A DNA stretch of 64,000 bases from assembly GCF_055900595.2 (NCBI RefSeq), contig NZ_CM148325.1. One strand, written 5' to 3'. The translations under genes were made by a program, and so were the position numbers. Below the pieces are notes generated by a model. The model saw nothing but the letters and a program-made list of their open reading frames with translations. It ran no database searches and had not been told where the DNA came from. Position 1 is the first letter of the stretch, and every line of letters begins with the position of its first letter. This document shows positions 27,834 to 34,972 of the stretch, in pieces.

Positions 27834-28799
27834 TTATTTTTCTGCACTACGCAGGGATATTTCACCGCCCATCCAGGATTTTATTATTCCATCCTGCTCA
27901 AGCAATAAAGCGCCTTGTTTGTCTATTCCACGTGAAATGCCAAATATTTCTTTATCACCAATGATAAGTTTCACTGGGCGATTAATAAAATTATCCAGTT
28001 TTTCCCAGCGCGAAAGATAAGGTGCCAATCCTTCTTGCTCAAAGAGTTCCAGCGCCGCACGTAATTCACGTATTAGCATGGCCGCCAACGCATTACGATC
28101 GAGATTGATCCCAGCTTCCTGCAGCGTGATCCACCCCTGATTAACGACACTCTCTTCAACACGACGCATTGCCATGTTGATACCAGCACCAACGACTATT
28201 TGCGCCGCATCGCCGGTTTTGCCAGTCAGCTCCACAAGAATACCTGCCAGCTTGCGATCCTGCAGATAGAGGTCATTCGGCCATTTAACACGAACTTTAT
28301 CAGCGCCCAACTTGCGTAATACTTCCGCCATCACGATACCGATAACCAGACTTAAACCAATCGCCGCAGCCGGGCCTTGTTCCAGACGCCAGAACATCGA
28401 CAAATACAAGTTTGCGCCAAAAGGCGAAAACCATTTCCGACCTCGGCGACCACGACCAGCCTGCTGATATTCTGCAACGCAGGCATCACCCGATTTAAGC
28501 TCTCCGATACGATCAAGAAGGTACTGATTCGTAGAGTCAATAACTGGCAGCACGGCTACACTACCGCTATCCAGCTGACTCAATATCTGTTCAGCATTAA
28601 GTAACTGGATGGGCTCAGGCAGGCAGTATCCTTTACCCGGAACGGTAAAGACATCAACGCCCCAGTCACGCAGTGTTTGAATATGTTTATTAATGGCCGC
28701 CCGGCTCATTCCTAACGTTTCACCCAGCTGCTCGCCAGAGTGAAATTCGCCATTCGCTAATAGCGTGATTAATTTTAGCGGAACGGTATTATCCTTCAT
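27834..28799 (-). CDS. birA: Biotin-protein ligase / bio operon repressor BirA
   Basis: 321-aa [61 protein letters not shown]... Confidence 0.95.
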
Positions 28800-29824
28800 G
28801 AAATCGTCTCCACTGCGCTAACTTCACCTGATGCACCAATAAAGCGAACTTCTGGCTCAAGCCAGACATTAAATTTTTCACCCACTTTCTGTCTTACATG
28901 ATGTGCCAGCTGCACAATATCTTCGCTTTTTGCATTGCCTTCATTAATGAGAACTAACGCCTGTTGACGGTGTACCGCAGCCCCACCAATTTGTGTTCCT
29001 TTTAGCTGGCACTGATCGATAAGCCAACCAGCGGCCAGTTTTACTGAACCATCCGTCTGGGGATAATTTGGTGCTGTTGGAAATTGTGCCAGTAATGCTT
29101 TAGCCGTTTCGGCAGATACAACAGGGTTTTTGAAGAAACTACCGGCATTGCCATTCACTTTTGGATCAGGGAGTTTGGTGGTGCGCATATGACACACCGC
29201 ATCAAATACTTGCTGTGGCGTTACGGTTGTAGGATCCAGACGAGTTAAGTCACCATACGTTAGTACAGGTTGCCACTCTTTTGGCAGGCGCAGACCTACG
29301 GCTACAATGGCGAAGCGGTCCTGGTATTCATGTTTAAAAATACTGTCGCGATAGCCAAAACGGCACTCTTTGGCAGTTAAGCGCACTTGCTTGCCTGTCG
29401 CCAGTTCGACACAGTCAACATAAGCGCAAACTCGCTGTAATTCTACGCCATAAGCACCAATATTCTGGATAGGTGATGAGCCGACACAACCAGGAATTAA
29501 CGCCAGATTTTCCAGACCTGGCATACCTTCCTGCAAAGTGTATTTTACCAGGCGATGCCAGTTTTCTCCGGCTCCTACATGTAAATACCACGCATCAGGT
29601 TCATCATGAATTTCGATACCTTTGATCCGGTTGATGATCACCGTGCCGCGATAGTCTTCCAGAAAAAGTACATTACTTCCTTCACCCAGAATAAGAACGG
29701 GTTGCCCTTCTGCGGTTGCATGCTGCCAGGCATTGAGTAGTTGTTGTTCGTCTTCGGCACATACAATGTGCTGAGCATTATGATCAATGCCAAATGTGTT
29801 CCAGGGTTTTAAGGAGTGGTTCAT
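28796..29824 (-). CDS. murB: UDP-N-acetylenolpyruvoylglucosamine reductase MurB
   Basis: 342-aa [24 protein letters not shown]...; overlaps birA start by 4 nt. Confidence 0.95.
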
Positions 29825-29917
29825 AGCTGCTTTCCTGATGCAAAAACGAGGCTAGTTTACCGTATCTGTGGGGGGATGGCTTGTAGTTATGACGACAGGG
29901 AGAGTTTGTAGAAACGC

Positions 29918-29944
29918 AAAAAGGCCCAGTCTTCCGACTGGGCC
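29918..29944 (-). terminator. rRNA operon terminator (single hairpin)
   Basis: Minus strand GGCCCAGTC-GGAA-GACTGGGCC followed by TTTTTGCG, 14 nt after the 5S end. Confidence 0.8.
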
Positions 29945-29958
29945 TTCTGCTTAATTTG

Positions 29959-30078
29959 ATGCCTGGCAGTTCCCTACTCTCGCATGGGGAGACCCCACAC
30001 TACCATCGGCGCTACGGCGTTTCACTTCTGAGTTCGGCATGGGGTCAGGTGGGACCACCGCGCTAAGGCCGCCAGGCA
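29959..30078 (-). rRNA. rrfB: 5S ribosomal RNA
   Basis: 120-nt reverse complement TGCCTGGCGGCC...GGGAACTGCCAGGCAT. Confidence 0.95.
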
Positions 30079-30171
30079 AATTCTGTTTCATCAGACCGCT
30101 TCTGCGTTCTGATTTAATCTGTATCAGGCTGAAAATCTTCTCTCAATCCGCCAAAACATCTTCGGCGTTGT

Positions 30172-33076
<2,905 letters not shown>

Positions 33077-33269
33077 TCACAACCCGAAGATGTTTCTTTC
33101 GATTCATCATCGTGTTGCGAAAATTTGAGAGACTCACGAACAACTCTCGTTGTTCAGTGTTTCAATTTTCAGCTTGATCCAGATTTTTAAAGAGCAAATA
33201 TCTCAAACGTCACCCGAAGATGAGTTTTGAGATATTAAGGCAGGTGACTTTCACTCACAAACCAGCAAG

Positions 33270-33345
33270 TGGCGTCCCCTAGGGGATTCGAACCCCTGTT
33301 ACCGCCGTGAAAGGGCGGTGTCCTGGGCCTCTAGACGAAGGGGAC
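33270..33345 (-). tRNA. gltT: tRNA-Glu (anticodon UUC) in the 16S-23S spacer
   Basis: Reverse complement reads GTCCCCTTCGTCTAGAGGCCCAGGACACCGCCCTTTCACGGCGGTAACAGGGGTTCGAATCCCCTAGGGGACGCCA. Confidence 0.95.

Positions 33346-33430: not shown

Positions 33431-34972
<1,542 letters not shown>

Follow-up and report, generated by a model that had tools for sequence, protein, structure and literature searches.

The window, that is, the whole 64-kb stretch of DNA analysed here, carries an rRNA operon on its minus strand, and this region is the rrnB neighbourhood of E. coli. Along the minus strand, the operon consists of the 16S gene (33431–34972, Rfam match), the spacer tRNA-Glu(UUC) between 16S and 23S (33270–33345), the 23S gene (30172–33076, Rfam match) and the 5S rRNA gene rrfB, the last gene of rrnB (29959–30078, 120 nt). 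The Rfam 5S_rRNA model matches 29961–30076 with 93 bits, and the 120-nt limits of the gene, 30078 to 29959, were set by comparison with the K-12 gene. The operon is followed on the same strand by murB (UDP-N-acetylenolpyruvoylglucosamine reductase; 28796–29824), a 342-aa ORF annotated as murB in matching genomes, and then by birA. Also downstream of the rrnB 5S lie coaA, on the strand opposite to murB-birA, and the Thr-Tyr-Gly-Thr tRNA cluster. The order 16S, tRNA-Glu, 23S, 5S and murB-birA, with coaA and thrU-tyrU-glyT-thrT beyond, identifies the operon by position as rrnB, and the rrnB annotation in matching genomes agrees with this gene order. We also looked for tRNA-linked repeats in the thrU-tyrU-glyT-thrT cluster of the window and found only the similarity of one tRNA to another. 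A StyR-44 match of 123 bits (33084–33192, minus strand) is located directly upstream of the 23S gene; StyR-44 is an established family from the rrn spacers of enterobacteria. The window 5S gene differs from MG1655 rrfB at two adjacent bases only (30066–30067, minus strand), which are positions 12–13 of the 5S. The window reads GGCGGC-CT-TAGCG at this place and MG1655 reads GGCGGC-AG-TAGCG. The same positions are CG in strain E69 and AC in E1V33, which makes them a small variable dinucleotide near the 5S 5' end.

The murB ATG lies at 29824, so that 134 nt (29825–29958) separate the 5S gene from murB. The first 14 nt of this interval are the 5S trailer CAAATTAAGCAGAA (29945–29958, minus strand), delimited by sequence reading and folding. 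The 18-nt sequence AACTGCCAGGCATCAAAT, composed of the 5S 3' end and the following 5 nt, was read at 29954–29971 (minus strand) in a single copy. In K-12, an RNase E site lies 3 nt past the mature 5S (PMC8144298), and by analogy this site may apply to the window trailer too. The hairpin GGCCCAGTC-GGAA-GACTGGGCC begins 14 nt after the 5S end at 29959 and occupies 29923–29944 on the minus strand (arms entered in the feature list as GGCCCAGUC-GGAA-GACUGGGCC). Sequence reading and folding give it 9 bp, 7 of them G-C pairs, and a tetraloop. It is followed by TTTTT (29918–29922) and GCGTTTC, the whole stretch 3' of the hairpin being TTTTTGCGTTTC. The U-tract UUUUUGCGUUUC at 29911–29922 (minus strand) is the expected site of transcript release. 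The initial annotation had placed the 5S end at 29959, a hairpin with a U-run within 14 nt of it, and murB 134 nt away, and the sequence, the ORF and the fold agree with all three positions.

These elements are those of an intrinsic terminator: a G+C-rich RNA hairpin (within about 5–14 bp) with a short loop, a U-rich tract directly 3' of the stem, and a location at the end of a transcription unit, 14 nt past the last gene of rrnB, with the structure conserved in relatives. The 71-nt context folds with −28.9 kcal/mol (z = −5.1 relative to dinucleotide shuffles), and none of 200 shuffles folds as well. The A-rich 3' part of the trailer CAAATTAAGCAGAA can pair with the U-run, and in the minimum-energy structure this lengthens the stem into GCAGAA/UUUUUGC. 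A hairpin followed by TTTTTGC is found at the equivalent place in dozens of species, and TTTTTGCG comes 3' of the hairpin in most related loci. In an alignment of 34 sequences, compensatory double changes were observed at 7 of the 15 consensus stem pairs. The hairpin behaves as a selected structure. No second hairpin, and hence no tandem pair, is present in the 134 nt that separate 5S from murB on the minus strand. The consensus promoter and terminator scanner reported no terminator in 29600–30200, though the hairpin is obvious by eye and by folding. We infer that the scanner missed it because the stem extends into the U-run, which leaves the T count of the tail below the threshold.

The remainder of the interval is the murB leader (29825–29910, minus strand), with the conserved block ATACGGTAAACTA at 29853–29865 and an AGGAAA ribosome-binding site at 29831–29836. 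When 80 Enterobacteriaceae murB loci were compared position by position, this block and the GTTTTTGCATCAGGA that follows it turned out to be the best conserved part of the leader. The same scanner found no match to a sigma-70 consensus, that is, no murB promoter, in 29600–30200. From its sequence, the region of the block ATACGGTAAACTA may hold a regulatory site, such as a weak −10 element (TAAACT).

The rrfB-murB gap of MG1655 is 300 nt, compared to 134 nt in the window, and in the pairwise alignment the window lacks 166 nt relative to MG1655. In K-12 rrnB, the 5S gene is followed by the terminator T1, a spacer, a repeat of the 18-nt 5S tail and the terminator T2, with the two tail copies 168 nt apart. 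Thus, AACTGCCAGGCATCAAAT occurs twice in K-12, flanking the rrB cassette, and once in the window interval, which contains no repeat of it; the 18-nt repeat itself has been described (PMC8144298). The module T1-spacer-tail-T2 is present in three K-12 operons, rrnA, rrnB and rrnD. As for the other four K-12 rrn ends, rrnG has a single T2-type hairpin, rrnE has a different single hairpin, and rrnC and rrnH run on into tRNAs. Stenum et al. (2021, PMC8144298) identified the K-12 T1-T2 interval as the gene rrB, a member of the tRNA-linked repeat (TLR) family together with rrA and rrF. Characteristically, TLR elements end in 18–19 nt that duplicate the 3' end of the RNA gene lying upstream of them. 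The rrA, rrB and rrF genes are transcribed by read-through of T1, the transcripts are processed to RNAs of about 173 nt and 115 nt, and the RrA, RrB and RrF RNAs bind Hfq and CsrA; the measured termination in K-12 is 87% at T1 and 100% at T2 (PMC8144298). The initial annotation had described tandem T1 and T2 terminators with a duplicated 5S tail for K-12. The MG1655 alignment shows exactly this, and the 300-nt gap removes the possibility, which the annotation had allowed for, that K-12 has the same short interval.

We compared the K-12 5S-murB interval with the whole 64-kb window using BLAST, and only the terminator and murB leader parts match. For the rrB body (positions 40–155 of the K-12 interval, about 115 nt), this search gave no match in the window. 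The rrnB end of the window is rrB-free: it has one tail copy, no small-RNA body and no second terminator. At the same time, it keeps the attachment context, the 18-nt 5S tail, at the exact site that rrB fills in K-12. Two observations concern the K-12 spacer itself. In MG1655, Rfam gives a weak RtT match (RF00391, 17 bits, E = 0.7, below the threshold) in the T1-T2 spacer (L001, 344–387); RtT is the tyrT-linked repeat RNA, and the match fits the assignment of rrB to the tRNA-linked repeat family. The 168-nt period is about that of a 5S gene with its trailer, and we considered whether the spacer could be a decayed second 5S gene. This was rejected: in a global alignment to 5S of the spacer minus the common 18-nt tail, 1,175 of 2,000 shuffles score at least as well, and the Rfam search of the K-12 T1-T2 spacer gave no 5S match. 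Single deletions in K-12 rrnB were considered as well, and none gives the window sequence.

The window hairpin combines features of both K-12 terminators. It has the same position relative to the 18-nt tail as K-12 T2, the type of hairpin that also ends rrnG on its own and stands second in rrnA. Its flanks TAAGCAGAAGGCC...GGCCTTTTTGCGTTTC equal those of K-12 T2; in rrnB, the T2 flanks CAAATTAAGCAGAAGGCC ... GGCCTTTTTGCGTTTC are identical in the window, and the murB leader downstream is also the same. The uninterrupted U5 tract is T2-like. The top of the stem and the loop, however, are CAGTC-GGAA-GACTG in the window (9-bp stem, −18.8 kcal/mol) and ATCC-TGAC-GGAT in K-12 T2 (8-bp stem, −14.7 kcal/mol). 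The 14-nt core CAGTCGGAAGACTG is that of T1 in K-12 rrnA and rrnD, where stem core and loop CAGTCGGAAGACTGGGCC are identical to those of the window, and it is one loop base off the T1 of rrnB. The predicted free energy of the core is −18.8 kcal/mol for the window, compared to −15.8 kcal/mol for K-12 T1 and −14.7 kcal/mol for T2. In K-12 T1, the stem includes a G-U pair (GGCU...), the U-tract UUUCGUUUUAUC is interrupted and the left flank is A-rich and of T1 type, whereas the window has an all Watson–Crick stem and UUUUU. K-12 T1, reported to be leaky (87%, PMC8144298), is followed by the rrB, rrA or rrF small-RNA body; the window hairpin is followed by the murB leader alone. The description of a T1-like stem in a T2-like context, given in the initial annotation, is therefore accurate, since the flanks are those of K-12 T2 and the core is that of rrnA and rrnD T1.

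The frequency of the arrangement was assessed in 5,426 complete E. coli genomes, where the allele counts reflect BLAST coverage and identity bands rather than inspection of each genome. The K-12-type tandem adjoins murB in 2,521 of the 5,426 genomes; genomes without it align to K-12 from the 5S tail onward only. About 550 records, such as TKEC21-59 (L090), have a single pure T2 directly after a real 5S and at least 99% identity to K-12 from the tail on. The window-type single hairpin accounts for 2,280 records, counted by an identity to K-12 of 90–95%, the band typical of the window allele. The window allele, with small differences in some strains, is present in about 40% of the 5,426 genomes. 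The 71-nt terminator context of the window is covered to at least 80% in 2,153 genomes, and 932 records match it with an identity of 99% or more. At least 8 independent complete E. coli genomes share the 401-nt stretch around the interval with 100% identity, and 611 records share it with 99% or more. The initial annotation had proposed that other strains be checked for the same arrangement, and it was found in more than 2,000 genomes, including Sakai and CFT073. Both have a single terminator and a 134-nt gap to murB, as in the window. In O157:H7 Sakai, the leader is identical over the compared region, and a single A-to-G change in the stem produces a G-U pair; in CFT073, the left flank is altered and the leader resembles that of K-12. 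The arrangement of the window is a common natural variant, neither a rearrangement nor an assembly error. It is already known in kind, as a standard intrinsic terminator found in thousands of public genomes; our literature search found no description of strain-to-strain variation at the rrfB-murB interval.

The cassette also varies at other rrn operons. NZ_CP098223.1 is identical to the window over the 401 nt; its rrnA, rrnB and rrnE each end in one terminator, and rrnD is the only one of its operons found with the cassette. Its rrA/rrB/rrF family consists of one copy, compared to three in K-12. In this genome (loci L095, L093 and L097), the rrnA end has a single T2-type terminator without the rrA cassette, and the gap to mobB is about 90 nt versus 269 nt in K-12. 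Its rrnE has a K-12-like hairpin, and T1-spacer-T2 is present at rrnD alone, after rrfF. In strain C11, rrnE ends in the same 51 nt as the window rrnB: the 5S tail, GGCCCAGTCGGAAGACTGGGCC and TTTTTGCG. The C11 rrnE (L089, NZ_CP010133.1, 2060407–2062857; about 1191–1330 of the locus) is followed directly by yjaB. The yjaA gene, present after rrnE in K-12 and NZ_CP098223.1, is absent from this place. A megablast search with the 130-nt K-12 T1-T2 spacer (the rrB body) gives one matching place in O157:H7 genomes and three in K-12-like ones, and for 1,452 of the 5,426 complete E. coli genomes it gives none. The rrA/rrB/rrF family may thus be entirely absent from about a quarter of the sequenced strains, and its copy number, to judge from these matches, varies between E. 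coli strains. The pattern would fit a model in which conversion that extends out of the conserved 5S gene copies cassettes from one rrn 3' end to another or removes them.

In order to see the site in other species, one genome per species was scanned, and the best 80 of 242 murB loci were taken, a set in which Salmonella and E. fergusonii are not present. Informative sequence upstream of murB is available in 46 of the 80 loci; the other 34 are uninformative, many being contigs that break at the rrn repeat. Among the 46 informative Enterobacteriaceae species, 39 have a genuine 5S gene with one hairpin and 7 are tandem-like. In the 39 single-terminator loci, the median 5S-murB gap is 143 nt (range 112–259). 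Every informative non-coli Escherichia locus has a single terminator. Escherichia whittamii has GGCTCAGTC-GAAA-GACTGAGCC alone in T2-type flanks, a close variant of the window hairpin, Escherichia sp. E1V33 and strain E69 have single T2-type hairpins, and E. albertii has GGCCCGGTC-GAAA-GACCGGGCC on a contig that starts within the left flank. In Citrobacter amalonaticus (L022) and Kosakonia oryzendophytica (L086), the only hairpin before murB is exactly that of the window. The tandem module precedes murB in Kluyvera, Enterobacter, Citrobacter portucalensis and Raoultella. The complete genome of Kluyvera genomosp. 3 has the tandem before murB with the tails 168 nt apart, and in one tandem (L076) a window-type hairpin occupies the T2 position. 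With this distribution, the tandem module is old. Since both singles and tandems with varied hairpins are found across species, hairpin type and cassette presence vary independently.

Two of the scanned loci have further peculiarities. In Escherichia sp. MOD1-EC7003 (L013), about 300 nt of foreign sequence lie between a T2-type terminator remnant and the murB leader (about 1–421 of the locus). An ORF start in it (MDEKQLQALANELAKNLKTPEDL...) looks like a transposase N-terminus and is a candidate for one. In Enterobacter sp. BIGb0383 (L075), 137 nt upstream of murB, a T1-type hairpin and a T1-type 3' flank TTTTGTTTTATCTGTTGTTTGCC are joined directly to the murB leader, an arrangement suggestive of an rrB-like cassette cut off just after T1.

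The initial annotation had suggested that the T1-to-T2 interval collapsed by recombination between the repeated 5S tails. The K-12 interval is indeed absent from the window, but the proposed route does not fit, since recombination between the repeats would produce a pure T2. According to this idea, an ancestor with a K-12-like T1-rrB-T2 lost the interval between the 18-nt repeats. Both repeats are present in K-12, 168 nt apart, the tandem module is old enough for an ancestor to have had it, and the exact predicted product, a 5S gene with a pure T2 and the K-12 leader, exists in about 550 genomes, for example in TKEC21-59. In the window, however, the core is CAGTCGGAAGACTG and not the predicted T2 core ATCCTGACGGAT. 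Because the core is not that of T2, this history would require a further step in which the hairpin core was replaced. Moreover, non-coli Escherichia and most Enterobacteriaceae are single at the site, and NZ_CP098223.1 is without the module at rrnA too. We consider such a loss unlikely.

Still less probable is an unequal crossing-over inside the hairpins themselves, which would join the 5' part of T1 to the 3' part of T2 at the shared GGCCTTT. It would explain why the core is that of T1 and the 3' flank that of T2, and the 166-nt alignment gap falls exactly between GACTG and GGCCTTT. Yet a hybrid of this kind should carry the T1-type left flank AAATAAAACGAAAGGCT, whereas the window has the T2-type AAATTAAGCAGAAGGCC with 5 differences, the shared homology is only 7 nt, and the same combination of hairpin and flanks occurs in distant genera that are single at the site. 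These points make the crossing-over very improbable. The short direct repeat of K-12 at the edge of a multi-copy rrn operon is also a typical place for assembly errors, and a repeat could have been collapsed in the assembly of the source genome. Against this, the 401-nt region recurs without a mismatch in at least 8 independent complete genomes and at 99% identity or more in 611 records, and the arrangement is also that of Sakai, CFT073 and over 2,000 genomes. As these more than 2,000 genomes were completed independently of one another, an assembly collapse is excluded, and the chance left to it is negligible.

We are therefore rather confident that the window shows the natural rrnB 3' end of an E. 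coli lineage without the rrB cassette, with one Rho-independent terminator, and that this single state is probably ancestral. Most likely, the hairpin would function as one efficient intrinsic terminator that ends rrnB and shields murB-birA. By this model, RNA polymerase would transcribe the 14-nt trailer, the 9-bp G+C-rich hairpin would form in the nascent RNA, and the transcript would be released in the UUUUU tract about 40–45 nt past the 5S end. RNase E and exonucleases would then trim the trailer, as the work on K-12 suggests by analogy. The hairpin itself is one of several stem cores that are interchangeable in Enterobacteriaceae rrn operons within the same flanks (GGCC...GGCC UUUUUGC). 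Operons probably exchange these cores through gene conversion that extends out of the 5S gene.

In K-12, the cassette is made up of T1, the TLR small-RNA body of roughly 115 nt and the second 18-nt 5S tail, and it separates the 5S gene from the final terminator. The single-terminator state is probably the ancestral one here, and the dual-terminator state of K-12 with rrB probably a secondary acquisition. Outgroup parsimony, with one genome per species, makes it somewhat probable that the single state is ancestral at rrnB in Escherichia. Our confidence in this is limited because the tandem module is old and repeated loss is possible. It is more tentative, and in our estimate slightly less probable than the contrary, that the window keeps an unoccupied ancestral rrnB end and that T1-rrB-T2 of K-12 is a later gain of a TLR cassette, gene-converted from a resident rrnD copy. 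If this is true, the dosage of RrA/B/F would differ by E. coli lineage, with three copies in K-12, one in NZ_CP098223.1 and none detectable in roughly one in four complete genomes; we found no discussion of such variation across E. coli in PMC8144298. Lineages without a copy would be natural knock-outs of a small RNA that binds CsrA and Hfq, and the filled and empty sites would bear on how TLR elements spread.

For biology at large the meaning is small, as the window has an ordinary terminator in an arrangement common to thousands of genomes, including reference pathogens. For E. coli, the T1-T2 architecture of K-12 rrnB, used in countless vectors, is not the norm of the species but one of three common alleles. 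Strains with the window allele are natural rrB nulls, and NZ_CP098223.1 is an rrA null as well, which fits the weak phenotypes reported for deletions. Such nulls can be used for studying the role of the small RNA, and the filled and empty sites together offer a clean comparison for the gain and loss of tRNA-linked repeats.
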